Shown here piece by piece: positions 2,584 through 28,493 of a DNA stretch of 64,000 nucleotides. The stretch lies in NCBI RefSeq assembly GCF_058153355.1, contig NZ_CM177019.1, one strand, 5' to 3'. The position numbers and the translations under genes are program-made. The stretch's first letter is position 1. Each line of letters begins with the position of its first letter. The notes under the pieces were generated by a model that saw only the letters and a program-made list of their open reading frames with translations, did no database searches and was not told where the DNA came from.

Positions 2584-2605
2584 TTTCGATCCCTCTGATT
2601 ATTCG

Positions 2606-3349
2606 TTATGCAGGATTAGGAATATCAATAAAGGTCACATCAAGATCGGTATTTTCATTCAGCCACTCGCTCAATGCGCGAATACCACCGCGTTCAGTGG
2701 CATGGTGACCCGCAGCATAAAAATGCAATCCCTGCTCGCGGGCTGAATGAATGGTCTGTTCAGAAACTTCGCCAGTAATAAAAGCATCCACGCCAAAACG
2801 CGCGGCGCTATCGATAAAACTCTGCCCGCCGCCCGTGCACCAGGCAACGCGCTGAACCACCTCAGGTCCGGTATCGCCACACCATAACGGCTTACGACCC
2901 AGACGCGCTTCAATCCAGGAAGCCAGCTCCAGTCCCGGCACAGGCATGGTCAGTTCGCCCCACGGCACCAACGGCTCAATTTCGCCCAAGACCGTAATCC
3001 CAAGTAACGCCGCCAGCTGTGCGTTATTGCCCAGCTCTGGATGTGCGTCAAGCGGCAAATGCCAGCCATACAGGTTGATATCATTCGCCAGCAACGTTTT
3101 TAAACGGTTACGCTTCATGCCGCGAATTACCGGGGATTCGCCTTTCCAGAAGTAGCCATGATGCACAATGACCGCATCCGCGCCCAGACGCACCGCTTCA
3201 TCGAGCAAAGCCTGGCTGGCGGTGACACCGGTAACAATTTTTTGCACCGTCTCTTTGCCTTCCACCTGCAAACCATTCGGCGCGTAATCACTAATCGCCG
3301 CGCTGTTCAGTTTTTCGTTAATCAGTTGTTCCAGTTCGATGTTTTTCAT
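2606..3349 (-). CDS. ybgI: Nif3-family metal-binding protein (GTP cyclohydrolase 1 type 2 homolog)
   Basis: 247-aa ORF directly upstream of pxpB on the same strand; recognised YbgI sequence. Confidence 0.85.
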   Translation of the reverse strand: MKNIELEQLINEKLNSAAISDYAPNGLQVEGKETVQKIVTGVTASQALLDEAVRLGADAVIVHHGYFWKGESPVIRGMKRNRLKTLLANDINLYGWHLPLDAHPELGNNAQLAALLGITVLGEIEPLVPWGELTMPVPGLELASWIEARLGRKPLWCGDTGPEVVQRVAWCTGGGQSFIDSAARFGVDAFITGEVSEQTIHSAREQGLHFYAAGHHATERGGIRALSEWLNENTDLDVTFIDIPNPA

Positions 3350-3436
3350 CTTCGCGCCTTCCGTATTCTGATAGCTACACCGTTAACATAGCGTTACCTC
3401 GCCTGTTCGTCGATAGCCAATCTTTTGACATATTAA

Positions 3437-5101
<1,665 letters not shown>

Positions 5102-5116
5102 CAGGTCAGCACCGAT

Positions 5117-5149
5117 GCCTGATAAGACGCTCGCTGCGTTTTATCAGGC
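5117..5149. terminator. Hairpin between convergent dtpD and phr (gcctgataa ... ttatcaggc), likely bidirectional terminator / REP-like
   Basis: Perfect 9-bp inverted repeat with 15-nt loop located between two convergent stops. Confidence 0.5.
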
Positions 5150-6562
5150 TCCTTTCCTCGCTTCTTCGTACGCTGCCAGCGTTCGCAGCCTTGCCTCTTT
5201 GTGATCAACTATCGGTTGCGGATAATCCAGCGTCACACCTGCTTTCTGCGCCCACTTCCACGGTTCATGCACCGCTTTCCCTGGTACATCACGCAACTCT
5301 GGTAACCACTGGCGGATAAACTCACCTTCGTGGTCAAATTTCTCGCCCTGAGTTGTCGGGTTGAAAATACGGAAATACGGTGCAGCATCAGTTCCAGTAG
5401 AAGCCGCCCATTGCCAGCCACCGTTATTGGCTGCCAAATCACCATCAATCAGTTGCGACATGAAATATCGCTCGCCTTCCCGCCAGTCGATCAGCAAATC
5501 TTTCACCAGAAAACTGGCAGTAATCATCCGCAGGCGATTATGCATCCAGCCAGCGCTGTTAAGCTGACGCATGGCCGCATCAACAATCGGGTATCCCGTT
5601 TTGCCTTCCTGCCAGGCCTTTAAATGCGCGGGATTGCTTTGCCACTGTACGCGATCGGTCCAGGCAATAAAGGGGCGATGCTTACACAGTGACGGGTGAT
5701 ACGTCATCAAATGACGGTAGAACTCGCGCCAGATCAGCTCATTAAGCCAGACGCTACCCGGTCCGCCTTCCAGCGCCTGCGGCTGTTCCGCCAACAGGCG
5801 ATGCAGACACTGGCGAGGCGATAACCTACCCGTTGCAAGGCTTGCAGACAAACGGCTGGTGCCTTCCACTGCCGGAAAATCACGCTGCTGATCGTACTGA
5901 CTCGCACCGTTCTGGCAAAACTGGCGTAATTGCGCAATCGCCGCTTTTTCTTCCACCGGGAAATGCGCGGTATCGAAAGACTGACGAGGGTAATTCAGCG
6001 TAATAGATGGCGCGGGATCTAATGATCCGCTACTCCGAACTTTTGGCGCAGCGACGCACTCCGGCATCCCTTCCCGCAGCCGTTTCAGCCAGGCATTCTT
6101 AAAAGGCGTAAAGACTTTGTACATCTCATGATTGCCAGTCATCACCGCCCCCGGCGGCAGGATCACGCTGTCATCGAACCCTTCACACACCACGTTACTC
6201 AGCGCTCTTTCAACTTCCACATCCCGCGCCCGCTCATTCACCTCATACTGATAGTTATAAAACAGATGGGTAACACGATTTTCCGCGCACACCTGTTTAA
6301 CTATTTCGACGCTGGCGGCAAAGTCATCCACTTCATGAAACAGCAAAGGAATGCCTTTTTCCGCCAGCGCGATTTGTAGCCCGTTCAGTTGTGCATTGAT
6401 AAATTCAGCCTGACGCGGCGACATATTATGCGCCGCCCACTGGCGTGGTGTAGCGATATACAACGCCAGCACGCGTGCAGACGAATAGCGGCAAGCGGCC
6501 GCCAGCGCGAGATTATCATGCAGACGTAAATCCTGGCGAAACCAGACCAGATGGGTAGTCAT
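5144..6562 (-). CDS. phr: Deoxyribodipyrimidine photolyase
   Basis: 472-aa ORF with C-terminal FAD-binding region (WQWAASTGTDAAPYFRIFNP). Confidence 0.9.
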   Translation of the reverse strand: MTTHLVWFRQDLRLHDNLALAAACRYSSARVLALYIATPRQWAAHNMSPRQAEFINAQLNGLQIALAEKGIPLLFHEVDDFAASVEIVKQVCAENRVTHLFYNYQYEVNERARDVEVERALSNVVCEGFDDSVILPPGAVMTGNHEMYKVFTPFKNAWLKRLREGMPECVAAPKVRSSGSLDPAPSITLNYPRQSFDTAHFPVEEKAAIAQLRQFCQNGASQYDQQRDFPAVEGTSRLSASLATGRLSPRQCLHRLLAEQPQALEGGPGSVWLNELIWREFYRHLMTYHPSLCKHRPFIAWTDRVQWQSNPAHLKAWQEGKTGYPIVDAAMRQLNSAGWMHNRLRMITASFLVKDLLIDWREGERYFMSQLIDGDLAANNGGWQWAASTGTDAAPYFRIFNPTTQGEKFDHEGEFIRQWLPELRDVPGKAVHEPWKWAQKAGVTLDYPQPIVDHKEARLRTLAAYEEARKGA

Positions 6563-7113
6563 AAAACTCCTGCATGGCGCAAGTTAATCACCCGCGGCCA
6601 AAGTTCGAAATAACGCTGCTCTGAAAGCCAGGCGTCAGGATAAAGCGCCATATAGTGTTTGATACGCATCAGCGGCGCAAGAAGCGGTTGCTCGCCACGG
6701 CGATAACTGTCGATAAGCGCCGCCAGCTGCTGGCGTTCTGTGGAATCAATATGTGGGCGAAAATAACCCTGAACGTGCATCAAAACGTTGGTGTGATCGC
6801 GCGGGTTGGCGGGATGAGAAAGCAAAACAATGACGCGTTGGCGGTACTGGTTGTAATAGTCATCCAGATTTTGCCACTGGTGAATATCAGCCACAAACGG
6901 GCCAAGTTTGCGGTATTCCGGCTGGGAATGAGCCAGAAAGACGAGTTTATAGCGGCTGTGATAATCGTTGAGCGCCCCGCGCGTTAAGCCATGTTCTTTC
7001 AGTCGATGTAACTCATAAAGCGCGAAGATACGGATTAAAGTGCTTTCATCAAATCGTTGCTGATTCATTACTGCTCCTGAACGGTTTACAGGAGTAAGTG
7101 TAGACGTTGGCAA
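6559..7113 (-). CDS. ybgA: DUF1722 protein YbgA (co-transcribed with phr)
   Basis: ORF whose stop overlaps phr start by 4 bp; true start may be an internal ATG (K-12 protein is shorter than the 184-aa maximal ORF). Confidence 0.7.
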   Translation of the reverse strand: MPTSTLTPVNRSGAVMNQQRFDESTLIRIFALYELHRLKEHGLTRGALNDYHSRYKLVFLAHSQPEYRKLGPFVADIHQWQNLDDYYNQYRQRVIVLLSHPANPRDHTNVLMHVQGYFRPHIDSTERQQLAALIDSYRRGEQPLLAPLMRIKHYMALYPDAWLSEQRYFELWPRVINLRHAGVL

Positions 7114-7128
7114 ATGATGTTTGTGAAG

Positions 7129-7986
7129 TTAATCCTGTTGTAGCAGGGCAAGATTACGAAAGCACGCTCCCCGCAAGGACTGACGCCAGGTAGTTTCTGT
7201 CCATGGCTGCCCTTTCCATTCACACGTGAAATCAATAAGTTCATCAGGGACATCGCAAACAATGTGAAGACGGATTTCTTCTCTGCCGTGACTCTTTTCA
7301 CTAATTGCGTAACTGTCATGCTCTGGATTATTTAATTCTTTCAGTGAGAATTTTTCCTCAAAGGCTTTATTTAGCCGCCCCTGGTTTCCTTTTACAGCGA
7401 ATAAATAATCACCTCCCTGTTTTTGTATCTTCTCTGCAATATCTTTCTGGCAACCCATCGCATCAGTTGTGATGATTTTTCCTTTAATATCCAGCATGTT
7501 AAGAAGTTCAGGGATAGCTGTAATTTCATTTGATTTCTCATCCGTCCTGATCTGTCCGATGACCAGACTGTGCATTGTTGAGAACGCACTAATGACATGA
7601 ATCGCTCCCCTGCAGCGACTCTTGTCATAAGAATGCCGGAGCTTTTTTCCATCAATTGCAATGACGTCTTTATCATCTGAAGAATGGCAGTCACGCATCC
7701 AGTTAATAAAGCACTCGTGAAATTTTGCAGGACTGATACAGGATACAACTCTGGCAATGGTATCGTGAACAGGAATACCATTTTCAAAATCACCCTATTG
7801 CTTCAAAAAATCGAGATGTGTTTCCCCAAAATCCTCTATATCTTCTCAACCTTCTGCACCCGAAATAACGGCGCAAATAGTCAACAGTAGAATATCCGAT
7901 AATTTATGTTCCACTTTCCAGGCTTGTCTGTAATCGGGGATAATAGAAATATGTTCCATCAATTTTTTAAGTACCATTTTGTTCTC
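7129..7986 (-). pseudogene. Decayed H-repeat (ISAs1-family) transposase: frameshifted and internally deleted
   Basis: N-terminus [43 protein letters not shown] then stop; body in two overlapping frames (7392-7793 and 7129-7698); the canonical C-terminal peptide [12 protein letters not shown] appears out of frame after ...EWKG, indicating an internal deletion. Confidence 0.8.
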
Positions 7987-8370
7987 CTTAATTATGTAAG
8001 GAGTATTTGATCATGTATAAGCAATAAAAAACAGCTTCAGGTAATGAGGAATATCTCAATTTTTAAACATAAAATGCGAATTGTTTAGTACAAAAAAGCA
8101 GCGTTACGTGATCTTTTCCTGCCATGGGTCTTTACCACAGCAGCTGGGGTTGTTTGGGACCGACTTCCGACAGCAGATCCCGGTGAGCCTGCCACCATCT
8201 CTTCACAAGCTTATGCTTATTACATGCAAAACGTCCCGTTTTGCATCTTTGTGCCTACGGCACACGATGATCTTTCCCTGAGGAGTCATACTTTGTTAGG
8301 ATAAAAAACCTTTAAATAGCTTTCCTACCTTCCAATAAAAACCACAGAATCAGCAATGTTTAAATTTCAA

Positions 8371-9192
8371 TCAGTATTGAGTTTCATTTGTGATCTCTAC
8401 ATTCACTCCTGATGGCTTCTCGCTAAATAAATATCTCATACTCTCATTCTCCATAATCACGGATATATTTAACCCTCCATGAATCCATTGATATGTAATA
8501 TTTTTATCATCAATCTTATAACTAAAATTCCCAATTGGTAACTTTTCCTTCAGATAATTATTCTCCTCATAACTAAGTGCTAGTAATTTATCATAGGCAC
8601 CTTTTAAATCAAAACCCTCAAAATAGCAATGTTCTTTTGATGAACCATCAAATTCTTTTCTGGGATTAGCATCATGACACCAAGTCGACCATTTTTCTTT
8701 TTTTTCCTCAGAAGTATGTTTTTTTTCATTGAAAAACAGCACATAATATTTCTCTGGGATTATTATCTGATCATTAATTTTTAAGATATCTCTATATGGC
8801 CCAGGACATTTATGAACAGAATCCATAATGGATATTTCTTCAGGAAAAAGTTTGCCTTCATGTTTAAATAATTTCCTGTACATACCAACTGTTGTTTGTG
8901 ATAAGTAATATGACAAGGGCTTTTTTTTAACTTCAACATAGTCAGTCGAGCATACGAGACTATTTTCCAATGAATAATCATTTATCGTTAGCTTTCGCCC
9001 ATCCATATTTATCACTACCTTACTGTATGTTTCATCAAGGGCACTTATTATAAGCGAATCATGTTTACCAAAAACATCGATATCTGAAACATTATGATAA
9101 ATCCATACGGTATTTTTAGTATTATCATTAGAATATGCGATACCATGAATAAAAAAAATCATTAGAAAGCCCATAAAAAATTTACCGCGCAT
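8371..9192 (-). CDS. Secreted (signal-peptide) protein of unknown function; candidate immunity protein for the upstream effector
   Basis: 273-aa ORF, N-terminal hydrophobic signal peptide (MRGKFFMGFLMIFFIHGIAYS), very AT-rich and K/N/E-rich; AAGGA ribosome-binding site; starts 19 bp after the effector stop. Confidence 0.6.
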   Translation of the reverse strand: MRGKFFMGFLMIFFIHGIAYSNDNTKNTVWIYHNVSDIDVFGKHDSLIISALDETYSKVVINMDGRKLTINDYSLENSLVCSTDYVEVKKKPLSYYLSQTTVGMYRKLFKHEGKLFPEEISIMDSVHKCPGPYRDILKINDQIIIPEKYYVLFFNEKKHTSEEKKEKWSTWCHDANPRKEFDGSSKEHCYFEGFDLKGAYDKLLALSYEENNYLKEKLPIGNFSYKIDDKNITYQWIHGGLNISVIMENESMRYLFSEKPSGVNVEITNETQY

Positions 9193-9211
9193 ACAAATTC
9201 CTTAATGTAAA

Positions 9212-11977
9212 TCAATGTGATGAATCATAAACATTATTCAAAAATAGATTTTGTTCTTTTCGGCGTCGTATAACAAGGCCAGCAACTCCGCCATTTGTAA
9301 TATCAAGAAATTCATTGGAGGCACCTATATAATCCTTTTGATTAAGTTTAGAATTCAAATTCGGTGCCTTACTCATGCTCCCCATATTAAACAATAAACT
9401 TATTAACGCATCAAATTCGTACTGATATAAATCCACACTCACTGTTCTTTTAAGCTCACTAACAAAACCAGATAAACGCTCTTCAAATAACTCATCAGCT
9501 TTAGCAATTGTTATTCCATGCTGAAATTCTTCTGGTAAAACTATATCATTGCAACGTTGTGTAGCAATTAAATGTCCATAACCTATAGTACAGTAACCTT
9601 CTGAATCATTATATGCTGTTAGTTGTAAATATTCCCATTCTTTTATAAAACCCTTACCTTTATTTGATACATTCAAATCTGCAATGGCGATCCTTTCAGC
9701 AGTTTGTTCTTCGTTAAAACTATTGATGTACCCCTCCATCAATATATCAATTGGATCATGTAAATCATCCCGTCTATAAAATGGAGGTATTTGTGTATTA
9801 TTCGGCGGAGGCGCTCCATTGTTTCCTGGATAGTATTCAAAATGCAACATATAAACCACTTCTTCCCCAGGGATTATAACTGGAGGCCTCCCTGTATCAG
9901 GTTTAATCATCAACCCTGTTTTGGCAATTATTGCCCCTTGCATAATATGATCATTAATCTTTACTAAAATACTTGATGGATCAACTTCACCATACCGCAC
10001 ATAGAAATGCCGACCATCTCTAGTCGAGTGCTCAATCGTAACTTGCCAAGTACCGTAATAGTATCGAGAAATAGCTCTTACTATTCCGTTGCAAACCGAA
10101 ACAATATCAGACTTCGGTTCCGTATATAGATCACGCGCTCCATGTTTTCTATTACCATTATTACGATTTCGTCCAAATATAGCTTGAGAGGCATTTCGAT
10201 CTGTCAAGGCAGCAGCCCAAAAATAATTTTTCCACTTTCCATTTTTGTCATTATTAGGTTTTACTTTTAAAGGAAAAATAATTTGATTTGATTTTTTCTG
10301 AGATAATGAATCTAAAAACACAACCGGATGAAAATGCCACACAGCATCATCACTATTAAACGGAGATACCCCGCTCATCCACTCCAGATCCAGCTGCCAC
10401 TTCTCACAGTATGCCACTTCCTCTGTATCCAGATCTTTATAAAATCCTTCCCACCGCCCTGTCGAGCGCCCTCCGTACCATTCGCTGTGGTGTTTAACTA
10501 TCAGATGATTCACCACATTTCTCACCAGTGGTTCACGCACGATCAGCGCCTGTCTGATCTCTTCCTCCGTCACTTTTCCATCACCGTCCTGATCCATACC
10601 CGCCATCAGCTCACGATAAAAGGGCGGTACCTGCTCATACAGCCACTCATCTCCCTGTTCTGCGGCACGGCTTATTGAGTCAAACGCTTCCGGCACCCAT
10701 CCTTCGTACGGGCTGTACGTCATGTCACCGCTGCTGTTCTCCTCCAGCGGTTGAAAACCCAGCTTCAGTAAATCATACTGTCCGGCCTCTTCAACATCCT
10801 TTTGTGGCAGCCAGCCGGTTCCGGTGATATTAAACCACCACTGCTGCGATTCATCCGTGACTGGTGTCGTGGCTTCCCGCGGAAGAACGCGCTGAGCACC
10901 CAGCGTGGCTGCGGTTGCGGTAAATACCTCCTGTCCCGGAACGGCCTGCCGGGTGTATAAAATTATCCCTTTTGGTGCCAGAACAGTCCGTTTTTCTCCC
11001 TTAACGCCTGCCGGGTTGGATAAGAACTTTGGCATATTCGGGTCTGTACTCAGAACCTCCAGATGGACGAACCACTCGCGCTCAATCTCACCGCTTCCCT
11101 CGCCAGGATAATCCTCGCATCCCATAAATCCGACCGGTGTTCCGGCACTGACTTTCCACTCTTCCGTTTCGTCGACCGTCTGTACCGAGTCAAAAATGCC
11201 TTTTGCCTTCGCCTTCTGCATCCACTCAGGCATCAGCATCTGTATTTCGCCATCTGACTCCATCAGATCCGGATCCAGGGTCACCCAGTACTGCTCATTC
11301 CCCGGTTTATTGCCTTCCAGCAGGCGAACCAGTCCGAATGTCGTCAGGACCGGCTGGCCGTTATTGGTCACGTAAAAACGTCCGGTCCGGGATGACACAA
11401 ACCGATCTCCCGCATTAAGTGTCCTGTTTCCGCTGATTTTCGGGGGTATCCAGTACGTGGCATGATCTCCGCTTTCCTGCCCCTCGGGAAGGCCGTTCTT
11501 TCCCGGGATGTATCGGTGCAGCAATATGCCACCATGCCCGGTTTTAACTTTATAGCAGGGGGAGCCGGGATAATCGTTCACCGGGGCCAGATGCATATAG
11601 AGACAGTAAAATTCCAGCCAGCTTTCTTTTTTTTGCGGGTCTGGCTGGCACTGCGATTTCACCAGAACAAATGTGCTGCTGTAACGGAGTTGCTGCCCTT
11701 TGTAGGGGCCTTTCAGGTAATCATTATTTATCCGGTACGCCGCAATGGTGCCATCGGCCATAAACTGAAGAGGAACCGGTTCTCCGGTAGCGGCGGTATC
11801 CGGTTTCAGGGCTGATAACGGATTAGACACGTCACTGATATGTATCCCGCCGTGCCACAGCCCGTTTCCACCCAGCAGCCAGGTTCCGTGCGCTTCTTTG
11901 TCAATAAGCCGCATTATCTCATCCAGTGAGCGAAACTCTTTGCCTTCTTTATCCCTGATGGGATGGCTGATTTTCAT
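9212..11977 (-). CDS. Candidate T6SS cargo effector: multidomain peptidoglycan hydrolase (M23/LytM-like domain plus C-terminal T4-lysozyme-like GH24 domain), with an EF-hand-like loop
   Basis: 921-aa ORF starting 9 bp after the vgrG stop with an AAGGA ribosome-binding site; C-terminus carries the phage-lysozyme signature EWEYLQLTAYNDSEGYCTIGYGHL; middle region has KHGARD (HxxxD) ... YMLHFEY (M23-like); DQDGDGKVTEEE calcium-binding-type loop. Confidence 0.7.
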   Translation of the reverse strand: MKISHPIRDKEGKEFRSLDEIMRLIDKEAHGTWLLGGNGLWHGGIHISDVSNPLSALKPDTAATGEPVPLQFMADGTIAAYRINNDYLKGPYKGQQLRYSSTFVLVKSQCQPDPQKKESWLEFYCLYMHLAPVNDYPGSPCYKVKTGHGGILLHRYIPGKNGLPEGQESGDHATYWIPPKISGNRTLNAGDRFVSSRTGRFYVTNNGQPVLTTFGLVRLLEGNKPGNEQYWVTLDPDLMESDGEIQMLMPEWMQKAKAKGIFDSVQTVDETEEWKVSAGTPVGFMGCEDYPGEGSGEIEREWFVHLEVLSTDPNMPKFLSNPAGVKGEKRTVLAPKGIILYTRQAVPGQEVFTATAATLGAQRVLPREATTPVTDESQQWWFNITGTGWLPQKDVEEAGQYDLLKLGFQPLEENSSGDMTYSPYEGWVPEAFDSISRAAEQGDEWLYEQVPPFYRELMAGMDQDGDGKVTEEEIRQALIVREPLVRNVVNHLIVKHHSEWYGGRSTGRWEGFYKDLDTEEVAYCEKWQLDLEWMSGVSPFNSDDAVWHFHPVVFLDSLSQKKSNQIIFPLKVKPNNDKNGKWKNYFWAAALTDRNASQAIFGRNRNNGNRKHGARDLYTEPKSDIVSVCNGIVRAISRYYYGTWQVTIEHSTRDGRHFYVRYGEVDPSSILVKINDHIMQGAIIAKTGLMIKPDTGRPPVIIPGEEVVYMLHFEYYPGNNGAPPPNNTQIPPFYRRDDLHDPIDILMEGYINSFNEEQTAERIAIADLNVSNKGKGFIKEWEYLQLTAYNDSEGYCTIGYGHLIATQRCNDIVLPEEFQHGITIAKADELFEERLSGFVSELKRTVSVDLYQYEFDALISLLFNMGSMSKAPNLNSKLNQKDYIGASNEFLDITNGGVAGLVIRRRKEQNLFLNNVYDSSH

Positions 11978-11986
11978 GTTCAGTCC

Positions 11987-14186
11987 TTATCGTGAGAATC
12001 TTCCCGGCCGTTGTGGCGGTACCTTATCCTGCTGGGGAGGATCAAAGGCTTCCTGTACACTTTTCCGTGGTGGCTCCGCCCCTTCAGTTCCAGGTCCGCC
12101 ATTGTCATAATCTGCCAGCGCTTTCAAAACCGCCGGTCGTAGCGTCGGCACCGGCGTTCCCGGACTACCGCCGCTATTGAGATTGATTTTCGGCCCGACG
12201 ATGTCCACGCCCCCTGAATGGATGACCACAAACGAACCACCCACCTTTAGGGTGATTTTACCGCCACTCTCCAGTACGATTTCATTCCGGACCTTCATTC
12301 CCAGCGCACCGGTAATCTTCCTCGCCAGGTCGCCCTTCACCTCCAGACTGTGCTTTCCCTCCACCAGGCTGATATGGTTCCCCGTCGTCTTATGCTCCTG
12401 CTTCCCTTCCACCGTCACTTTACGGTCGTTTCTGACATACAGGCCGTCATCGTGACTCACGCTCACCGTCCGGTCATTCGTCACCTTCAGCGTCTGGTCA
12501 TTACGTACCGTTATGCGCCGGTCGTTCGCCACCGTGATACTCTGGTCGTGACCCCCTTCTTTTCTGGTGCCGACCTCAACCGTCTGCCCCTTCACCACCC
12601 TTATCTTCTGGTCGTTACCGATGGTCTCCGTATGGTCATGCTTCACGTCCGTCGTCCGGTCGTTAAGCACCTCCGTGTCCATGTTCTTCTGCGCGTGGAT
12701 ATACACCTGCTCACTGTCCGTCGCATCCTCGAAACGCAGTTCATTAAAGCCGCTTCCTTTATAGGTCTTCGAGCGGATGGTCATCTGCGTCCGCGTGCCC
12801 GGTAAATCCCCCGGTGAACGGTTATCTTCATGGTAGGTCCGCCCCGTCACAATGGGCTGGTCCGGGTCGCCGTTCAGAAAGTCCACTATCACTTCCTGAC
12901 CCACACGCGGTATCGCCAGATTGCCGAACCCCGGTCCCGCCCATGCCTGCGACACCCGTATCCAGCACGAACTCTCCTCCGTCATCCCGTGATAACGGTC
13001 CCAGTGAAACTTCACCCGTACCCGGCCATGCTCGTCGCAGAATATCTCCTCACCCTTCGGCCCGGTCACGATGGCACTCTGCGGGCCGTCCACCTTCGGC
13101 TTCGGCAGCGGCGCGTGACGCCACGTCCTGTCTGCCGGTATCACCTCAAACTGATTGCTCAGTGTCGTCCCTTCACCGTGACTCCCGTGCAGCGCCTGCG
13201 GCTGTTCTCCCCGCAGTGTGCTTCCCACAACCTGCCATTCCCGGTTCAGCGTCTCTGAGGGATGGCCCGTCAGCCGGAACCGCGTTCCCGGCCACAGCCG
13301 CGCCGTGTTACACACCCCGCTCGCCGTCTCCGCCCCGTTCCGCCACCCTTCCGTCTGGTAACGCGCAAAATCCTGGCCATGCTGCTCATCCTTGAAACGC
13401 CCCGGATAATCAAATATCTCGTACTGCGTTCCCTGCCCGTTCAGGCTCTCCCCGTCATGGCTGTAGTACCCCGGCCACCCCGGCGTTTTGAACGTATAAT
13501 CCTGCGTCTCCACCGACGCCACGCTTATCTGCGCACGGTAACGAAACTCACTGATGTACTCCGTCGTTCCCCCGGTCGTGGTATTCGGGTTAAACGCCAG
13601 CGCCCCCATTCCCGTCAGCCCCGCCACGTCATCACACACCGCCAGCTTCTGCTCCGGCCCTTCCTGACCGCAGCGCTCATAAAAGAAGATACCTTCCTCC
13701 GCCCACAGCCGGGTCAGGAATGCCAGGTCGCTCTCCCCGTACTGCACGCAGAACTCCCGCGCCGGGTGCGCCTCATAGAACAGCGGCATCCACGCCGTCA
13801 CCCCGTTCTCTCTCAGAAGCTGTGCTGATATCGTCTGAATGTCCTGCTGCTGGAAGATACGGAAGTTCTGCCGTAACCCTGCCCGCCACAGCGGCGGGCT
13901 GATGCTCAGGGAATAACGCATCTGCCAGTCGTTGTTCTCACCGAGCTGCACCTCCGTCACGATACCGCTGACGTAACGCTGCGGGATATCACCCTGCCAG
14001 ACCGTCAGCACCGCGCTCTTCTCCAGAAAATCCTCCGCCATCAGGTCGGACAGCCCGCTGGCGATATCCACATCCAGGATGAACGACGTGCAGTGGTGCT
14101 GGTACAGACGGAAGCTCACCACCGCCGTCGCCATCTCCACGATACCGTCCACCGACAGCGTGAAACGTAATCCTTCTGAGGACATA
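11987..14186 (-). CDS. vgrG: Type VI secretion spike protein VgrG (gp27/gp5-like)
   Basis: About 733 aa from MSSEGLRFTL; characteristic VgrG N-terminus, gp5-like beta-helix repeats (VTVxNDRxxTV...) and Pro-rich C-terminal tail; the maximal ORF extends 11 codons further upstream. Confidence 0.85.
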
Positions 14187-14360
14187 TAAACCCCATAGCT
14201 ACCGCACTCATGGTGCAAACCATACGGGCTTATAAGAAAGGCTTAAGTGAGATATCTGCCAGATAGCAACTATTAGGAAAATATTTATATATATTTCATG
14301 AATATATATTTCGGTTGGTATAACGGTGTCTAAATATTCCTCTGAACATCTTCCTGATAC

Positions 14361-14394
14361 AAAAAAACCGCCAGCGTCTCCGCTGGCGGTTTTC
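14361..14394. terminator. Rho-independent terminator downstream of ybfA
   Basis: GC hairpin accgccagcg/cgctggcggt flanked by A-run and T-run. Confidence 0.6.
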
Positions 14395-14415
14395 TTTGAA
14401 CGTCATGTTTAGCAA

Positions 14416-14622
14416 TCAGTAAAAATCACCGGTTGCCTTTTCGGCCTGATCCATCCACACCGGTTTATCGCTGGTTTTCGACCAGACGCGATGCAGGTAG
14501 CTGTAAAAGCGGGCGCGGTCTTTCCAGAAAAGCATGAAAGGCAGCGCCAGGACGCCCGCTGCAACCGCATAAGTACGGCGTAAAAAGATAAGCCATGCAG
14601 GATATTCTCTGTAGAGTTCCAT
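14416..14622 (-). CDS. ybfA: DUF2517 small membrane protein YbfA
   Basis: 68-aa ORF recognised as YbfA. Confidence 0.8.
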
Positions 14623-14830
14623 ACTTTTCTCCCCCTTTTGTATCTACCCGGTGAATGGCACCGGAAAAATGAATTTGTTTATCTGATGAAAATAGTACCG
14701 CCTTTTGTGTAATTTTACTACTCATCCGACCACTTATTTTTGCTTATTGATGGTTTATTTACATTCACTCTGTAATTAAGTTACACAAAAGTTAAATTAA
14801 TACTAAACATTAGTTAAATCATGGCTTTTG

Positions 14831-14857
14831 CCATTTTTATACTTTTTTTACACCCCG
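14831..14857 (+). promoter_or_regulatory. T-rich KdpE operator in the kdpFABC promoter
   Basis: ccatttttatacttttttttacacc about 80 bp upstream of kdpF; recalled KdpE binding site. Confidence 0.5.
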
Positions 14858-14934
14858 TCCGCAGATTTTTGCGAAATCTTTGCAGCCAGAATTCTACCCT
14901 TCCGGTATCACTTTTAGGCCACTGGAGGTGCACT

Positions 14935-15024
14935 GTGAGTGCAGGCGTGATAACCGGCGTATTGCTGGTGTTTTTATTACTGGGTTATCTGGTTTATGCC
15001 CTGATCAATGCGGAGGCGTTCTGA
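14935..15024 (+). CDS. kdpF: Kdp-ATPase small subunit KdpF
   Basis: 29-aa hydrophobic peptide [29 protein letters not shown]; GTG start preceded by GGAGG; stop overlaps kdpA start. Confidence 0.8.
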
Positions 15025-18776: not shown

Positions 18777-19349
18777 ATGAGTGGATTACGTCCGGCATTA
18801 TCAACATTTCTCTTTTTGTTACTGATTACTGGCGGTGTTTACCCGCTGCTGACCACCGCGCTGGGGCAATGGTGGTTTCCCTGGCAGGCCAATGGTTCGT
18901 TGATTCGCGAAGGTGATACGGTGCGCGGCTCGGCATTAATCGGGCAGAATTTTACCGGCAACGGCTATTTTCATGGTCGCCCGTCGGCAACGGCAGAAAT
19001 GCCCTATAATCCACAGGCTTCTGGCGGGAGCAATCTGGCGGTCAGTAACCCTGAGCTGGATAAACAAATCGCTGCACGCGTTGCCGCATTACGGGCCGCT
19101 AACCCGGACGCCAGCACGAGCGTTCCGGTTGAACTGGTGACGGCGTCAGCAAGCGGGCTGGACAATAACATTACCCCGCAAGCGGCGGCCTGGCAGATTC
19201 CTCGCGTGGCGAAAGCGCGTAATCTCAGCGTTGAACAGCTCACGCAGCTGATCGCAAAATATAGCCAACAACCGCTGGTGAAATATATCGGCCAGCCGGT
19301 CGTCAACATTGTCGAACTCAATCTGGCGCTGGATAAGCTTGATGAATAA
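18777..19349 (+). CDS. kdpC: Potassium-transporting ATPase subunit C
   Basis: 190 aa from [11 protein letters not shown]... Confidence 0.9.
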
Positions 19350-22026
19350 CGAACCCTTACGTCCCGACCCCGATCGTCTGCTGGAACAAACTGCCGCGCC
19401 GCACCGGGGGAAGCTGAAAGTTTTTTTCGGTGCCTGTGCAGGCGTCGGGAAGACCTGGGCGATGCTGGCAGAAGCCCAACGACTGCGGGCGCAAGGGCTG
19501 GATATTGTGGTTGGCGTGGTTGAAACTCACGGACGGAAAGATACCGCCGCAATGCTGGAAGGGCTGGCTGTTCTGCCGCTAAAACGCCAGGCGTACCGTG
19601 GGCGGCATATCAGCGAGTTTGATCTCGATGCCGCCCTCGCCCGCCGTCCGGCGCTGATCTTAATGGACGAACTGGCGCACAGTAATGCGCCAGGTTCTCG
19701 TCATCCTAAACGCTGGCAGGACATTGAAGAGCTGCTGGAAGCAGGCATTGATGTTTTCACTACCGTCAACGTTCAGCATCTGGAAAGTCTGAATGATGTG
19801 GTCAGTGGCGTCACCGGAATTCAGGTACGGGAAACCGTGCCCGATCCTTTTTTTGATGCTGCCGACGACGTGGTGCTGGTGGACTTGCCCCCGGACGATC
19901 TGCGCCAGCGGCTGAAAGAAGGCAAAGTCTATATTGCCGGGCAGGCGGAGCGCGCCATTGAACACTTTTTCCGCAAAGGCAATCTGATCGCCCTGCGCGA
20001 ACTGGCACTGCGCCGTACTGCCGATCGCGTAGATGAGCAAATGCGCGCCTGGCGGGGGCATCCTGGCAAAGAGAAAGTCTGGCACACGCGCGACGCGATC
20101 CTTTTATGTATTGGGCATAACACCGGCAGCGAAAAACTGGTCCGCGCGGCGGCGCGGTTGGCGTCACGGCTGGGGAGCATCTGGCACGCGGTGTATGTTG
20201 AAACCCCTGCCCTGCACCGCTTACCGGAGAAAAAACGTCGGGCAATTCTCAGCGCCTTACGTCTGGCGCAGGAGCTGGGCGCGGAGACGGCAACACTTTC
20301 TGATCCAGCGGAAGAGAAAGCGGTAGTGCGTTATGCCCGTGAACATAATCTCGGCAAGATTATTCTCGGTCGCCCGGCCTCGCGCCGCTGGTGGCGTCGG
20401 GAAACGTTTGCTGACCGACTGGCGCGAATCGCCCCCGATCTCGATCAGGTGCTGGTCGCGCTTGATGAACCACCCGCCCGCACGATTAACAACGCGCCGG
20501 ATAGCCGCTCTTTTAAAGACAAGTGGCGGGTACAGATTCAGGGATGCGTGGTTGCCGCCGCGTTATGCGCCGTTATCACCTTAATTGCCATGCAGTGGCT
20601 GATGGCGTTTGATGCCGCCAACCTAGTGATGCTGTATCTGCTTGGCGTGGTGGTGGTGGCGCTATTTTATGGACGCTGGCCTTCGGTGCTTGCTACCGTC
20701 ATTAATGTGGTGAGTTTCGATCTCTTTTTTATCGCCCCACGCGGCACGCTCGCCGTCTCTGATGTGCAGTATCTGCTGACTTTCGCGGTGATGTTAACCG
20801 TCGGGCTGGTGATCGGGAATCTTACTGCTGGCGTACGTTATCAGGCGCGGGTAGCCCGTTACCGCGAGCAACGCACACGACACTTATATGAAATGTCGAA
20901 AGCTCTGGCTGTGGGACGCAGTCCGCAGGACATCGCCGCCACCAGCGAACAATTTATTGCTTCCACGTTTCATGCCCGCAGTCAGGTGTTGTTGCCCGAT
21001 GACAACGGCAAATTGCAGCCGTTGACACATCCGCAAGGAATGACGCCGTGGGACGATGCCATCGCGCAATGGAGTTTTGATAAAGGCCTGCCTGCGGGCG
21101 CGGGCACCGACACGTTACCCGGTGTGCCATACCAGATTTTGCCGTTAAAAAGCGGCGAGAAAACCTACGGACTGGTGGTGGTGGAACCGGGGAATCTGCG
21201 CCAGTTGATGATCCCGGAACAGCAACGCCTGCTGGAGACGTTCACGCTGTTAGTTGCCAATGCCCTGGAACGCCTGGCACTGACCGCCAGCGAAGAACAG
21301 GCGCGGATGGCAAGCGAACGAGAACAGATCCGCAACGCCCTGCTGGCGGCGCTTTCGCATGATTTACGCACGCCGCTTACGGTGCTGTTCGGTCAGGCAG
21401 AAATCTTAACGCTCGATCTGGCAAGCGAAGGATCGCCTCACGCCCGCCAGGCCAGCGAGATTCGTCAGCATGTGCTGAACACGACCCGACTGGTGAATAA
21501 TCTACTGGATATGGCGCGAATTCAGTCCGGCGGCTTTAATTTGAAGAAAGAGTGGTTAACGCTGGAAGAAGTGGTCGGCAGCGCGCTGCAAATGCTGGAA
21601 CCGGGTTTATCCTCGCCCATCAACCTTTCTCTGCCAGAACCGCTGACCTTAATCCACGTTGACGGGCCACTCTTTGAACGGGTGCTGATTAATCTGCTGG
21701 AGAACGCGGTGAAATACGCGGGTGCGCAGGCCGAAATTGGTATCGATGCCCACGTTGAGGGCGAAAATCTACAACTGGATGTCTGGGATAACGGCCCCGG
21801 TCTTCCACAAGGCCTGGAGCAGGCGATATTCGATAAGTTTGCTCGTGGAAATAAAGAGTCGGCGGTGCCGGGCGTTGGGCTTGGGCTGGCAATTTGTCGG
21901 GCGATTGTGGATGTACACGACGGCACCATTACCGCGTTCAACCGACCGCAAGGTGGTGCCTGTTTTCGTGTTACACTTCCCCAGCAAACTGCCCCTGAAC
22001 TTGAAGAATTTCATGAGGATATGTGA
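19342..22026 (+). CDS. kdpD: Sensor histidine kinase KdpD
   Basis: 894 aa from [14 protein letters not shown]; histidine-kinase H-box (LSHDLRTPL) and ATPase motifs; start overlaps kdpC stop. Confidence 0.9.
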
Positions 22027-22700
22027 CAAACGTTCTGATTGTTGAAGATGAACAGGCTATTCGTCGCTTTCTGCGCACAGCGCTGGAGGGCGATGGGATG
22101 CGCGTCTTTGAGGCCGAAACGCTGCAACGCGGCTTGCTGGAAGCGGCAACCCGTAAGCCAGATTTGATTATTCTCGATCTCGGCCTGCCAGACGGTGATG
22201 GGATTGAGTTTATCCGCGACCTGCGCCAGTGGAGCGCGGTGCCAGTAATTGTGCTTTCCGCCCGCAGCGAAGAGAGCGACAAAATCGCCGCGCTGGATGC
22301 CGGAGCGGATGATTACCTGAGTAAGCCATTTGGTATTGGCGAATTACAGGCCCGTCTGCGCGTTGCTTTACGCCGCCACTCTGCTACCACCGCGCCCGAT
22401 CCGCTGGTGAAATTTTCTGATGTTACCGTCGATTTAGCCGCCCGCGTAATCCACCGCGGCGAGGAAGAGGTGCACCTCACACCGCTTGAGTTCCGCCTGC
22501 TGGCGGTGCTGCTCAACAACGCCGGAAAAGTGCTCACCCAGCGCCAGCTCCTCAACCAGGTGTGGGGGCCAAATGCGGTCGAACACAGCCACTATTTGCG
22601 TATATATATGGGGCATCTGCGACAAAAACTGGAGCAAGATCCCGCCCGCCCTCGCCATTTTATTACTGAAACCGGTATTGGGTATCGGTTTATGCTTTGA
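22023..22700 (+). CDS. kdpE: Response regulator KdpE (OmpR family)
   Basis: 225 aa; receiver domain plus winged-helix; overlaps kdpD stop by 4 bp. Confidence 0.9.
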   Translation: MTNVLIVEDEQAIRRFLRTALEGDGMRVFEAETLQRGLLEAATRKPDLIILDLGLPDGDGIEFIRDLRQWSAVPVIVLSARSEESDKIAALDAGADDYLSKPFGIGELQARLRVALRRHSATTAPDPLVKFSDVTVDLAARVIHRGEEEVHLTPLEFRLLAVLLNNAGKVLTQRQLLNQVWGPNAVEHSHYLRIYMGHLRQKLEQDPARPRHFITETGIGYRFML

Positions 22701-22933
22701 ATGTTAATTTTAATATATCCTGTCTTTTATTAATTAAAGCCGTAATAATAAATACGGCTTTTTATCTTAAACAACACACAAAAATAACAATTCAATATTT
22801 TATATTACTGAGTGAAAAACTCATCATTAAATAAATTAAGGTTGATCATTTTTTATTGATCACCTTCACAGTTCAACCGTATTTTCTGGATAGAATACCT
22901 TCACCTTCATTCACATCAGGAAAGGTAAATCAA

Positions 22934-23038
22934 ATGGAAAACAACAGCCGCACTATGCCCCATATAAGGCGGACAACCCATATTATGAAGTTTGCTCATC
23001 GTAATAGCTTCGACTTTCACTTCTTCAATGCCCGTTAG
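22934..23038 (+). CDS. speFL: speF leader (ornithine-sensing arrest peptide) SpeFL
   Basis: 34-aa ORF MENNSRTMPHIRRTTHIMKFAHRNSFDFHFFNAR about 260 bp upstream of speF. Confidence 0.75.
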   Translation: MENNSRTMPHIRRTTHIMKFAHRNSFDFHFFNAR

Positions 23039-23295
23039 TCTGTCGACTAAGGGCACTTCAGCGTACAGGTCTTCCTGACTCTCTGTATTACAGGCATACG
23101 CCTGTATTCCGCAGTGCTCATTCTCTGTTAACCCTTATATTATCAGCCACCGGACTGGTAAGGGTTTCTGCATTCTGAAAAAAGCAATCTACTGATTTAT
23201 TTATCAGCGGGGTAACTTTGCTTTTTTTCCGGCACGATCGATTTCTCATTCGAGAAATTGAGGACCTGCTATTACCTAAACTAAAGAGATGAAAA

Positions 23296-25494
23296 ATGTC
23301 AAAATTAAAAATTGCGGTTAGTGATTCTTGCCCGGACTGTTTTACCACGCAGCGAGAATGTATCTATATTAATGAAAACAGTAATATCGATGTGGCGGCA
23401 ATAGTTTTATCGATCAACGATGTTGCACGAGGAAAACTCGATGAAATCGATGCCACGGGTTATGGCATCCCGGTATTTATTGCTACTGAAGATAAAGAAC
23501 GTGTACCCGCAGAGTATTTGCCCCGTATTTCGGGTGTATTTGAGAATTGCGAATCACGACGAGAATTTTATGGTCGTCAGTTAGAAACCGCAGCCAGCCA
23601 TTATGAAACTCAACTGCGCCCGCCCTTCTTCCGCGCACTGGTCGATTATGTCAATCAGGGCAATAGCGCTTTTGACTGCCCGGGTCATCAGGGGGGTGAG
23701 TTTTTCCGTCGCCATCCGGCAGGCAATCAGTTCGTGGAATATTTTGGCGAAATGCTCTTCCGCTCCGACTTGTGTAATGCCGACGTAGCAATGGGCGATC
23801 TACTGATTCATGAAGGTGCGCCATGCATTGCACAGCAACATGCGGCTAAAGTGTTTAATGCCGATAAAACGTACTTTGTTTTAAACGGCACCTCCTCTTC
23901 CAACAAAGTGGTTTTAAACGCCCTGCTAACACCGGGTGATCTGGTGCTGTTTGACCGCAATAACCATAAGTCTAACCACCACGGGGCCTTGCTACAGGCT
24001 GGTGCAACACCGGTTTATCTGGAAACAGCACGTAACCCGTATGGTTTTATCGGTGGTATTGATGCGCACTGCTTCGAAGAAAGTTATCTGCGTGAACTGA
24101 TTAGAGAAGTTGCACCGCAACGGGCAAAAGAGGCGCGTCCGTTCCGCCTCGCTGTGATTCAGTTAGGCACCTACGACGGTACTATTTATAACGCCCGCCA
24201 GGTGGTGGATAAAATCGGTCATCTGTGTGACTACATCCTGTTTGACTCAGCATGGGTCGGCTATGAACAGTTTATTCCGATGATGGCGGACTGTTCGCCG
24301 CTGCTACTGGAGCTTAATGAGAACGATCCGGGTATTCTGGTTACGCAATCTGTACATAAGCAGCAGGCTGGTTTTTCTCAGACTTCACAAATTCATAAAA
24401 AAGACAGCCATATCAAAGGGCAACAGCGTTATGTACCGCACAAACGCATGAACAACGCCTTTATGATGCACGCCTCCACCAGCCCGTTCTATCCGCTGTT
24501 TGCCGCACTGGATATTAACGCCAAAATGCATGAAGGTGTCAGCGGTCGTAATATGTGGATGGATTGTGTGGTTAACGGTATTAATGCCCGCAAATTGATC
24601 CTCGATAACTGCCAGCACATTCGTCCGTTCGTTCCTGAACTGGTGGATGGTAAACCCTGGCAATCGTATGAAACAGCGCAAATTGCGGTTGATCTGCGCT
24701 TCTTTAAATTTGTACCCGGTGAGCACTGGCATTCTTTTGAAGGTTACGCAGAGAATCAATACTTTGTCGATCCGTGCAAACTGTTGCTGACAACCCCAGG
24801 TATTGATGCACGTAACGGCGAATACGAAGCGTTCGGTGTACCCGCGACGATTCTTGCTAACTTCCTGCGCGAAAATGGCGTAGTGCCGGAAAAATGCGAT
24901 CTTAACTCCATCCTCTTCCTGCTGACTCCGGCAGAAGATATGGCCAAACTGCAGCAACTTGTTGCCCTGCTGGTACGCTTCGAAAAACTACTGGAAGCTG
25001 ATGCGCCTCTGGCGGAAGTATTGCCTTCCATCTACAAACAGCATGAAGAGCGCTACGCCGGTTATACCCTGCGTCAGTTGTGCCAGGAAATGCATGATTT
25101 GTATGCCCGTCACAACGTGAAACAACTGCAAAAAGAGATGTTCCGTAAGGAACACTTCCCACGCGTCAGCATGAATCCACAGGAAGCCAACTATGCCTAC
25201 TTACGCGGTGAAGTGGAATTGGTTCGTCTGCCGGATGCAGAAGGCCGTATCGCAGCCGAAGGTGCGCTTCCTTATCCTCCGGGTGTGCTGTGTGTTGTTC
25301 CGGGTGAAATCTGGGGTGGTGCTGTTCTGCGTTACTTCAGCGCTCTGGAAGAAGGGATCAATCTGCTGCCAGGTTTTGCACCGGAGCTGCAGGGTGTCTA
25401 TATCGAAGAACATGATGGTCGTAAGCAAGTTTGGTGCTATGTCATCAAGCCTCGTGATGCGCAAAGCACCCTGTTGAAAGGGGAAAAATTATGA
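23296..25494 (+). CDS. speF: Inducible ornithine decarboxylase
   Basis: 732-aa ORF followed by overlapping potE. Confidence 0.9.
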   Translation: MSKLKIAVSDSCPDCFTTQRECIYINENSNIDVAAIVLSINDVARGKLDEIDATGYGIPVFIATEDKERVPAEYLPRISGVFENCESRREFYGRQLETAASHYETQLRPPFFRALVDYVNQGNSAFDCPGHQGGEFFRRHPAGNQFVEYFGEMLFRSDLCNADVAMGDLLIHEGAPCIAQQHAAKVFNADKTYFVLNGTSSSNKVVLNALLTPGDLVLFDRNNHKSNHHGALLQAGATPVYLETARNPYGFIGGIDAHCFEESYLRELIREVAPQRAKEARPFRLAVIQLGTYDGTIYNARQVVDKIGHLCDYILFDSAWVGYEQFIPMMADCSPLLLELNENDPGILVTQSVHKQQAGFSQTSQIHKKDSHIKGQQRYVPHKRMNNAFMMHASTSPFYPLFAALDINAKMHEGVSGRNMWMDCVVNGINARKLILDNCQHIRPFVPELVDGKPWQSYETAQIAVDLRFFKFVPGEHWHSFEGYAENQYFVDPCKLLLTTPGIDARNGEYEAFGVPATILANFLRENGVVPEKCDLNSILFLLTPAEDMAKLQQLVALLVRFEKLLEADAPLAEVLPSIYKQHEERYAGYTLRQLCQEMHDLYARHNVKQLQKEMFRKEHFPRVSMNPQEANYAYLRGEVELVRLPDAEGRIAAEGALPYPPGVLCVVPGEIWGGAVLRYFSALEEGINLLPGFAPELQGVYIEEHDGRKQVWCYVIKPRDAQSTLLKGEKL

Positions 25495-26810
25495 GTCAGG
25501 CTAAATCGAACAAAATGGGCGTCGTTCAGTTAACCATACTGACGATGGTCAACATGATGGGCTCCGGCATCATCATGCTGCCGACAAAGCTTGCCGAAGT
25601 TGGGACAATCTCAATAATCTCCTGGTTGGTGACAGCCGTAGGCTCAATGGCGCTGGCATGGGCATTCGCAAAATGCGGTATGTTCAGCCGTAAATCAGGC
25701 GGTATGGGCGGTTATGCCGAGTATGCTTTCGGTAAATCCGGTAACTTTATGGCGAACTATACCTACGGCGTCTCGCTGCTGATTGCTAACGTGGCGATTG
25801 CTATTTCGGCAGTTGGTTACGGCACCGAACTGCTCGGCGCGAGTTTGTCACCAGTGCAGATTGGTCTGGCAACCATCGGAGTGCTGTGGATTTGTACCGT
25901 GGCTAACTTTGGTGGTGCGCGCATTACCGGGCAAATCAGTAGCATTACCGTGTGGGGGGGCATTATTCCGGTGGTAGGCTTGTGCGTTATCGGCTGGTTC
26001 TGGTTTAGCCCGACACTTTACGTTGATTCCTGGAATCCGCATCATGCACCGTTCTTCAGTGCGGTAGGTTCTTCCATCGCCATGACGCTGTGGGCTTTTC
26101 TTGGTCTGGAGTCTGCGTGTGCGAATACTGATGTAGTGGAAAACCCGGAACGTAATGTGCCAATCGCGGTACTCGGCGGTACGTTAGGTGCGGCGGTGAT
26201 TTATATCGTCTCCACCAACGTGATTGCCGGGATTGTGCCCAATATGGAGCTGGCAAATTCAACGGCACCATTTGGTCTGGCCTTCGCGCAAATGTTCACA
26301 CCGGAAGTGGGTAAAGTCATTATGGCGCTGATGGTGATGTCCTGCTGCGGTTCGCTACTTGGCTGGCAGTTCACCATTGCCCAGGTGTTTAAATCTTCAT
26401 CTGATGAAGGCTACTTCCCTAAAATTTTCTCCCGTGTAACCAAAGTGGATGCACCGGTTCAGGGGATGTTGACCATTGTGATTATTCAGAGTGGATTGGC
26501 ACTGATGACCATTAGCCCGTCACTGAACAGCCAGTTCAACGTGCTGGTTAACCTGGCCGTGGTGACCAATATCATCCCATATATTCTGTCGATGGCGGCA
26601 TTAGTCATTATTCAGAAGGTCGCCAATGTGCCACCATCAAAAGCGAAAGTAGCAAACTTTGTTGCCTTTGTTGGTGCGATGTACAGTTTCTATGCGCTGT
26701 ACTCATCCGGGGAAGAAGCCATGCTGTACGGTTCCATCGTGACTTTCCTTGGTTGGACACTGTATGGTCTGGTATCACCACGCTTTGAACTGAAAAACAA
26801 ACACGGTTAA
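25491..26810 (+). CDS. potE: Putrescine/ornithine antiporter
   Basis: 439-aa APC-family transporter; start overlaps speF stop. Confidence 0.9.
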   Translation: MSQAKSNKMGVVQLTILTMVNMMGSGIIMLPTKLAEVGTISIISWLVTAVGSMALAWAFAKCGMFSRKSGGMGGYAEYAFGKSGNFMANYTYGVSLLIANVAIAISAVGYGTELLGASLSPVQIGLATIGVLWICTVANFGGARITGQISSITVWGGIIPVVGLCVIGWFWFSPTLYVDSWNPHHAPFFSAVGSSIAMTLWAFLGLESACANTDVVENPERNVPIAVLGGTLGAAVIYIVSTNVIAGIVPNMELANSTAPFGLAFAQMFTPEVGKVIMALMVMSCCGSLLGWQFTIAQVFKSSSDEGYFPKIFSRVTKVDAPVQGMLTIVIIQSGLALMTISPSLNSQFNVLVNLAVVTNIIPYILSMAALVIIQKVANVPPSKAKVANFVAFVGAMYSFYALYSSGEEAMLYGSIVTFLGWTLYGLVSPRFELKNKHG

Positions 26811-28394: not shown

Positions 28395-28493
28395 GCCGGA
28401 TGCGGCGTGAACGCCTTATCCGTCCTACAAAATAGTGCAAATTCAATATATTGCACCATCCTCGTAGGCCTGATGAACGTAGCGTATCAGGCT
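28395..28493. repeat. REP/BIME cluster (two inverted REP units)
   Basis: gccggatgcggcgtgaacgccttatccg..cctac and gtaggcctgatgaacgtagcgtatcaggc. Confidence 0.8.

Follow-up and report, generated by a model that had tools for sequence, protein, structure and literature searches.

Between the kdp genes and the speF-potE operon of contig NZ_CM177019.1 (NCBI RefSeq assembly GCF_058153355.1) lies a short open reading frame, raising the question of whether it encodes the ornithine-sensing leader peptide of speF and, if so, at which codon that peptide begins. The question is approached within a 64,000-nucleotide stretch of the contig, termed the window, by asking what the peptide is, which genes surround it, how well it is conserved and which RNA elements lie around it. 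With a probability of about 97%, the frame is speFL, the leader peptide gene of the speF-potE operon in its K-12 form, acting by ornithine-dependent stalling and relief of Rho termination. Nothing in the window sequence speaks against the identity as speFL. The gene is already known, annotated and structurally characterised, and the finding is correct and ordinary.

The locus has the gene order kdpD-kdpE, speFL and speF-potE. On the upstream side, full-length kdpD (19309-22026) is followed by full-length kdpE (22023..22700, plus strand; NF007820, 485.7 bits), and the kdp operon is closed by a terminator-like hairpin at 22736-22761, located by a terminator scan. The speFL coding sequence occupies 22934..23038 on the plus strand and consists of 34 sense codons and a UAG stop, its translation from ATG to TAG being MENNSRTMPHIRRTTHIMKFAHRNSFDFHFFNAR. 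It starts 233 nt past the kdpE stop and ends 257 nt short of the speF ATG, both distances equal to those in K-12. The regulated gene, speF (23296..25494, plus strand), encodes a full-length inducible ornithine decarboxylase of 732 aa (TIGR04301 ODC_inducible, 1433.8 bits against a cut-off of 1310). It overlaps by 4 nt with potE (25491..26810, plus strand), which is co-transcribed with it and encodes the full-length putrescine-ornithine antiporter of 439 aa (NF007938, 853 bits; TIGR04299, 846 bits).

Among all PDB chain sequences the peptide has one match, the SpeFL chain in 6TBV and 6TC3, with 34/34 residues identical (E = 7.6e-20). The K-12 locus, which RefSeq annotates as 'speFL: leader peptide SpeFL' (WP_211180488.1), encodes the same 34 residues. 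The NCBIfam scan of the 34-aa peptide returns no family, and NCBIfam holds no SpeFL HMM; NCBI probably names SpeFL by another rule, so that this null result is uninformative and the identification rests on the direct comparisons with PDB and RefSeq K-12. A 34-codon frame can arise by chance in an AT-rich spacer, but a 34/34 match to SpeFL cannot. An intact 34-codon speF leader frame at 22934-23038 was the principal claim of the first-pass annotation, and it holds in full, the ATG-TAG frame encoding the published SpeFL at all 34 positions. The comparison with the published speFL sequence, which that annotation had proposed, gives identity with the arrest motif included. Its reading of the frame as a metabolite-responsive stalling peptide is well supported at the level of sequence, which equals that of the characterised E. 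coli SpeFL with every arrest residue in place.

Agreement with K-12 extends beyond the 34 identical residues (WP_211180488.1; 6TBV, 6TC3; Herrero del Valle et al., bioRxiv 10.1101/604074). Both loci share the UAG stop, the rare Arg codons, the flanking genes and the 257-nt spacer, which is the speFL-speF distance given for E. coli in that study (bioRxiv 10.1101/604074). The leader DNA is 98% identical over 610 nt; the differences comprise three synonymous substitutions in the frame (Asn3, Thr15 and Arg23), two base changes just after the stop, both in the loop of a hairpin, plus a small number of base substitutions and 1-nt indels in the spacer.

The residues needed for arrest by mutagenesis are all present: residues 1-7, His10, Ile11, Arg12, Arg13, His16, Phe26, Phe28, Phe30 and Phe31. 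The N-terminal sensor-hairpin segment reads MENNSRT (residues 1-7), whose deletion abolishes arrest (bioRxiv 10.1101/604074). Pro9 then leads into the ornithine-recognition loop HIRRXXH (together residues 9-16), here HIRRTTH, encoded by codons 10-16 (22961..22981, plus strand) and defined by motif and mutagenesis (bioRxiv 10.1101/604074). The effector domain spans codons 14-34 (22973..23035, plus strand) and contains Phe20, Phe26, Phe28, Phe30, Phe31 and Asn32, with FDFHFF at residues 26-31; in the published description Phe26 is strictly conserved, and Phe28, Phe30 and Phe31 also belong to this domain (bioRxiv 10.1101/604074).

The function of these residues has been established on the identical peptide, for which toeprinting reveals ornithine-dependent, puromycin-insensitive arrest at codons 33/34 (bioRxiv 10.1101/604074). 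Replacement of Arg12 or Arg13 by Ala or Lys abolishes stalling, the two arginines forming part of the ornithine pocket, and cryo-EM places a single ornithine between the 23S rRNA and Pro9, Arg12 and Arg13, with the Phe core compacted and Asn32 pushing U2585 into the path of RF1 (bioRxiv 10.1101/604074). A speF fusion becomes constitutive in the presence of bicyclomycin (bioRxiv 10.1101/604074), and in Salmonella a translated orf34 keeps Rho from terminating transcription and unfolds the helix at the ribosome-binding site (PMC6386406). Rho dependence is thus on record for K-12 (bioRxiv 10.1101/604074) and for Salmonella (PMC6386406). Judged by sequence, every feature found necessary in the published experiments is present in the window. 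For this strain, we infer the stalling, Rho loading and RNase G steps by analogy, and ornithine binding, stalling and Rho dependence would carry over from the literature on the identical sequence.

In the mechanism proposed for this locus, transcription would begin about 31 nt 5' of the speFL ATG, and RNA polymerase would pause at the hairpin around the speFL stop and wait there for the first ribosome. With little ornithine available, that ribosome would terminate at UAG and depart, leaving the C-rich leader RNA exposed; Rho would then load onto it and transcription would stop a few nucleotides past the hairpin. The speF ribosome-binding site could in addition be captured through base pairing with the 3' part of speFL. 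With ample ornithine, a single L-ornithine would be trapped between the tunnel wall of 23S rRNA and the nascent HIRRXXH loop, the Phe-rich C-terminal domain would compact and U2585 would be displaced, preventing RF1 from acting. The ribosome held on the stop codon would cover rut and keep the inhibitory helix open, thereby allowing speF-potE to be transcribed and translated.

Two known kinds of leader resemble this arrangement. TnaC, which governs tnaCAB in response to tryptophan, likewise stalls at its own stop codon once the exit tunnel holds a free amino acid; the release factor is blocked, rut is masked and Rho termination is prevented (bioRxiv 10.1101/604074). It differs in its unrelated peptide and ligand and in its use of RF2 at UGA, making it an analogue of SpeFL and not a relative. 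The classical attenuators trpL and hisL share with speFL a short 5'-leader frame with consecutive codons for one amino acid, whose translation status decides transcriptional read-through. What they sense is charged tRNA, by way of runs of regulatory codons, and they act through an intrinsic terminator/antiterminator pair, whereas with SpeFL it is a free metabolite that the nascent peptide detects, and Rho that terminates transcription.

The leader RNA and its promoter contain counterparts of the published elements. A scan for consensus sigma-70 promoters gives no hit at threshold and no consensus -35 at normal spacing, and the promoter is placed by cross-genus conservation together with the primer-extension result from Salmonella. 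The -10-like hexamer TAGAAT (22891..22896, plus strand), TAAAAT in most other genera, lies within a near-invariant GATA(G/A)AAT, with 37 nt between its end and the ATG in the window as in Salmonella. The orf34 AUG of Salmonella is at +32 by primer extension (PMC6386406), and by homology the transcription start in the window would lie at about A22903, some 31 nt 5' of the ATG. Further upstream, a block at 22843..22871 (plus strand) comprises TGATCA (22843-22848), a T-run, TTGATCA (22856-22862) and TTCACAG (22865-22871), reading TGATCA-T6-ATTGATCA-CC-TTCACAG. The upstream alignment shows it in Escherichia, Citrobacter, Salmonella, Enterobacter, Kluyvera, Yokenella and Trabulsiella; the block and the hexamer are conserved in at least 10 genera, and the block may be a putative regulator-binding or -35 region. 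The repeated TGATCA with the T-run and TTCACAG looks like a putative regulator site for the acid or anaerobic induction of speF. The speFL Shine-Dalgarno region, AGGAAAGG, lies at 22918..22925 (plus strand), with GAAAGG conserved 8-9 nt before the ATG; in Salmonella the orf34 Shine-Dalgarno sequence is AGGA (PMC6386406).

Around the stop codon, the minimum-free-energy (MFE) and centroid folds both form the hairpin U-GCCC-(G)-UUAGUC / loop UGUC / GACUAA-GGGC-A (23029..23055, plus strand), which reaches -15.2 kcal/mol when folded alone and corresponds to the published RNA-polymerase pause hairpin (bioRxiv 10.1101/604074). The hairpin is kept throughout Enterobacteriaceae, the third base of codon 32 covarying with the base after GGGC (UA 11, CG 10, UG 8). 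It is absent from the Hafnia, Edwardsiella, Proteus and Buttiauxella homologues, which have a C-rich run after the stop instead; the hairpin therefore defines an enterobacterial subgroup only. A match to the pause consensus, G-11 G-10 ... Y-1 G+1 (23052..23063, plus strand), a weak pattern that carries little information, would place the 3' end of a short transcript at C23062, +160 from the putative start. The Rho-terminated short transcript of Salmonella orf34 is of similar length, about 157 nt from its start (PMC6386406). The candidate rut region at 22940..23130 (plus strand), C-rich and G-poor, is defined by composition: in 40-nt windows C counts of 7-15 exceed G counts of 6-10 throughout, which fits a candidate rut and is no proof of one. 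In the published model, rut overlaps speFL (bioRxiv 10.1101/604074).

The MFE structure of 22903-23320 pairs 23012..23025 (plus strand; speFL codons 27-31) with 23284..23300 (plus strand), the latter containing the speF Shine-Dalgarno sequence AAGAG and AUG (23296-23298), so that in the prediction the speF ribosome-binding site is hidden. This predicted helix is the counterpart of the Salmonella helix between nt 99-125 and 502-535, validated by compensatory mutations (PMC6386406). As a whole, the leader folds far better than shuffled controls (z = -4.27). A consensus scan also reports a terminator-like hairpin with a T-run at 23206..23229 (plus strand), found in both E. coli leader alleles and about 70 nt 5' of the speF ATG; in the full fold its T-run pairs with an upstream A-run. 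The supplementary tables of an E. coli Term-seq paper list no 3' end in the speFL leader, the only one nearby being an antisense 3' end within speF. Rfam includes an alphaproteobacterial speF RNA element. With Rfam 15, no family is found on 22700-23300 at the gathering score or even at E <= 1, and the two weak, irrelevant matches at a permissive threshold both lie outside the leader.

The rival reading that survives best gives the coding sequence a different signal. It holds that the frame mainly senses arginine supply through the rare codons AGG CGG (codons 12-13; 22967-22972, plus strand), pausing at which would change the leader fold and RNase G decay, as in the Salmonella orf34 model; we consider this possible, at somewhat less than even odds. 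K-12 and the other E. coli allele have the same two codons, which are also the majority state in the SpeFL homologues among the matches listed. In Salmonella Typhimurium, whose orf34 (Ben-Zvi et al. 2019, PMC6386406) belongs to the same peptide family as the window SpeFL, arginine repression, RNase G dependence and alternative structures have been shown, the Arg codons adding an arginine-dependent control of mRNA stability through RNase G (PMC6386406). In E. coli, a synonymous swap of codon 12 alters basal expression (bioRxiv 10.1101/604074). Against this, Arg12 and Arg13 belong to the ornithine pocket, and their conservation alone therefore does not show codon-level sensing.

The comparison of the two leaders bears on the same point. 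Window and Salmonella share the AUG 37 nt past a -10-like hexamer, AGG CGG at codons 12-13, a hairpin round the stop codon and, as a prediction in the window, the helix between the 3' part of the frame and the speF ribosome-binding site. They differ in the spacer, which is 257 nt in E. coli and 378-379 nt in Salmonella, about 120 nt longer, and in the stop codon, UAG in the window and UGA in S. Typhimurium orf34 (PMC6386406). Three residues, 5, 7 and 19, set the window peptide apart from its homologues in S. enterica subsp. arizonae and diarizonae. No counterpart of the Salmonella 'ring-like' structure and DS hairpin is found in the window leader, and the arginine/RNase G layer is shown only in Salmonella. 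The arginine codons would probably coexist with ornithine sensing as an added layer, no true alternative to it.

The reading of the frame as an ornithine-responsive arrest peptide can be further weighed against its conservation. One genome per species (GTDB set) was scanned with the back-translated pattern Pro9-HIRRxxH-x9-Phe26-x-Phe28, yielding at least 120 loci; positions 9-13, 16, 26 and 28 are imposed by this pattern and are not independent conservation. At least 99 loci, all Enterobacterales, contain a frame that begins with MENN and is SpeFL-like along its whole length. One further match listed, L073 (Raoultella), is a SpeFL frame that runs off the end of its locus. Another 20 matches listed are evident chance matches in unrelated phyla. 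A speF homologue lies 200-450 nt downstream of about 80 of the 99 SpeFL-like frames listed, and most of the remaining ones reach the end of the locus. Homologues among the matches listed are 33-41 codons long, mostly 34. At positions free of the pattern, all 37 unique 34-aa homologues listed have Met18, Arg23, Phe31 and Asn32, and 36 of the 37 have Thr15, Asp27 and His29; Lys19 is Escherichia-specific, with Met in other genera among the matches listed. Relative to 11 homologues, pS ranges from 0.16 to 0.77 and pN from 0 to 0.08, and the differences among the 99 homologous frames listed are almost all synonymous (pN/pS about 0.02-0.1). This pattern indicates that the SpeFL peptide is under strong purifying selection, as expected if the peptide is the effector.

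Several loci recovered by the scan stand apart. Two unlike speFL-like frames occur at separate loci in Edwardsiella hoshinae, E. anguillarum, E. piscicida and Morganella psychrotolerans. The loci concerned in these two genera are L009/L010, L012, L062/L063 and L071/L072 in Edwardsiella, L026/L027 in M. psychrotolerans, and L059 and L121 in M. morganii. A speF-like decarboxylase follows the speFL-like frame in 5/8 two-copy loci, those extending far enough, and one Morganella copy is extended to 39 aa. An exact K-12-type speFL, with a speF 97% identical to that of the window, also appears on a 2.2-kb contig of an actinobacterium bin labelled 'MAG: Collinsella sp.' (L083; JAIJJM010000551.1), which is almost certainly E. 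coli contamination of the bin.

Conservation also decides where the peptide begins. In the six-frame list, the frame runs from a TTG start at 22856 to 23038 (60 aa), and since it is open over this whole length the true product could in principle be the 60-aa protein, with the 34-aa peptide as its C-terminal part. We regard this as having hardly any chance of being correct, and it is rejected: both the conserved -10 element and the start site near 22903, placed by homology with Salmonella, lie 3' of TTG 22856, and the in-frame sequence 5' of MENN is unconserved between genera, many homologues having a stop 1-3 codons upstream of it. In every SpeFL-like homologue among the matches listed, the N-terminus is MENN. 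RefSeq annotates ATG 22934 as the start of a 34-aa product, and the change of AUG to AAA in Salmonella orf34 abolishes translation of the leader (PMC6386406). The first-pass annotation had described the listed frame as over-extended and the internal ATG at 22934 as the functional start, and both statements agree with these observations. The result is of use as a check on annotation, as six-frame callers stretch speFL to 60 aa and some RefSeq records label it 'hypothetical protein'.

The reading of the frame as an untranslated chance ORF in an AT-rich spacer, with purely RNA-based regulation, draws on the frequency of small ORFs (111 of at least 25 aa overlap a 9-kb stretch) and on the strong leader structure (z = -4.27), but it is given next to no credence and is rejected, being already refuted for the identical K-12 peptide: substitutions are almost all synonymous across the roughly 100 loci listed, the leader has no Rfam match even at E <= 1, structures of the nascent SpeFL peptide have been solved (6TBV/6TC3), and a double-frameshifted template loses ornithine-dependent stalling (bioRxiv 10.1101/604074).

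The speFL leader exists in two forms within E. coli. By megablast it is found in only 1,727/5,426 complete E. coli genomes, and by the more sensitive blastn in 5,044, in two forms. The idea that two thirds of E. coli lack the leader is thus rejected as an artefact of megablast sensitivity, blastn revealing a version of about 73% identity. The window/K-12 form is carried by about 1,700 of the 5,044 genomes and is 95-99% identical to the window; the second form, about 73% identical to the window, is carried by about 3,305 of them (e.g. E. coli ST131, L002, and strain 147, L003). The second form encodes MENNNRLMPH... (S5N/T7L) with residues 8-34 unchanged, and its spacer contains a 51-nt insertion, presumably akin to the end of an ERIC/IRU repeat. 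The divergent block measures about 850 bp, beginning at the kdpE stop and reaching about 250 nt into speF (about codon 83; window 22700-23545), and its flanks are 93-99% identical. The nearest relatives of the window/K-12 form are in Citrobacter (82-83%) and those of the second form in E. albertii (84-85%), a distribution that points to an import by recombination long ago. Between the two E. coli alleles pS is about 0.6 over the whole frame, yet residues 8-34 are identical. In the predicted fold, the C-to-T change of the second allele at 23023 falls on a paired helix base and converts G-C to G-U, and two further C-to-T changes, at 23020 and 23026, fall on unpaired bases. The two haplotypes might confer distinct thresholds for speF-potE induction and owe their persistence to selection, but we consider this unlikely relative to a neutral relic of one old recombination. 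A RefSeq 45-aa 'hypothetical protein' overlapping the promoter and start of the second-allele speFL (L002:3402-3536, L003:3421-3555) was discarded as a candidate gene: it is of low complexity, lies in another frame and is unconserved, and it looks like an annotation artefact.

The source of the window is related to, and somewhat diverged from, the sequenced E. coli. Three 15-20 kb stretches of the window are about 96-96.6% identical to the best-covering of the 5,426 complete E. coli genomes, and the host therefore belongs to an Escherichia lineage that borders on, or falls slightly beyond, the sampled E. coli diversity. Divergence from the complete E. coli genomes is about 3.4%. In the first 15 kb partial matches reach about 98%, and none of the complete E. 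coli genomes reaches 80% coverage of window 1-15000. Elsewhere in the window, an Rfam match to group II intron D1-D4 is located at 8079-8196 on the minus strand (42.9 bits against a gathering score of 36); in the E. coli genomes matching this region, ltrA (group II intron reverse transcriptase) lies beside Rhs, T6SS or pyocin-type genes. Other RNA genes include a match to the sRNA ES036 (CssrF) at 28429-28471, sroC at 58986-59148 and a cluster of seven tRNAs, Met-Leu-Gln-Gln-Met-Gln-Gln, at 47828-48531.

A SpeFL-like frame also occurs ahead of a different operon. Six Proteus species among the matches listed (L016, L036, L046, L052, L088 and L099) contain a 33-aa SpeFL-like frame, MENNNRKTPHIRRIAHIMMYKQRQCFHFSVFNG, that keeps HIRRxxH and Phe26/28/31. 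In L016 it occupies 4292-4393 on the minus strand (L016:4292-4393), with the downstream genes at L016:585-4156. About 135 nt 3' of the Proteus frame are genes for ornithine carbamoyltransferase, carbamate kinase and a YfcC-family basic amino acid transporter, and no speF; this operon is complete in 4 of the 6 loci, L052 and L099 ending at the locus edge. P. mirabilis (L040) has an ordinary speFL-speF pair. The ornithine-sensing arrest peptide may have been re-used for a second ornithine-linked operon in Proteus. Among the papers searched, none mentions speFL together with carbamoyltransferase.

In conclusion, the whole SpeFL leader is intact in a somewhat divergent Escherichia lineage, in which ornithine probably induces speF-potE at acid pH, as it does in K-12. 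The paired leader alleles within one species, which keep SpeFL residues 8-34 and the rare Arg codons and vary at nearly all synonymous sites, offer a test of which RNA elements are key. The Proteus leader, which like the paired alleles may be of use to specialists, suggests that the nascent-peptide ornithine sensor has been adopted by a second pathway.
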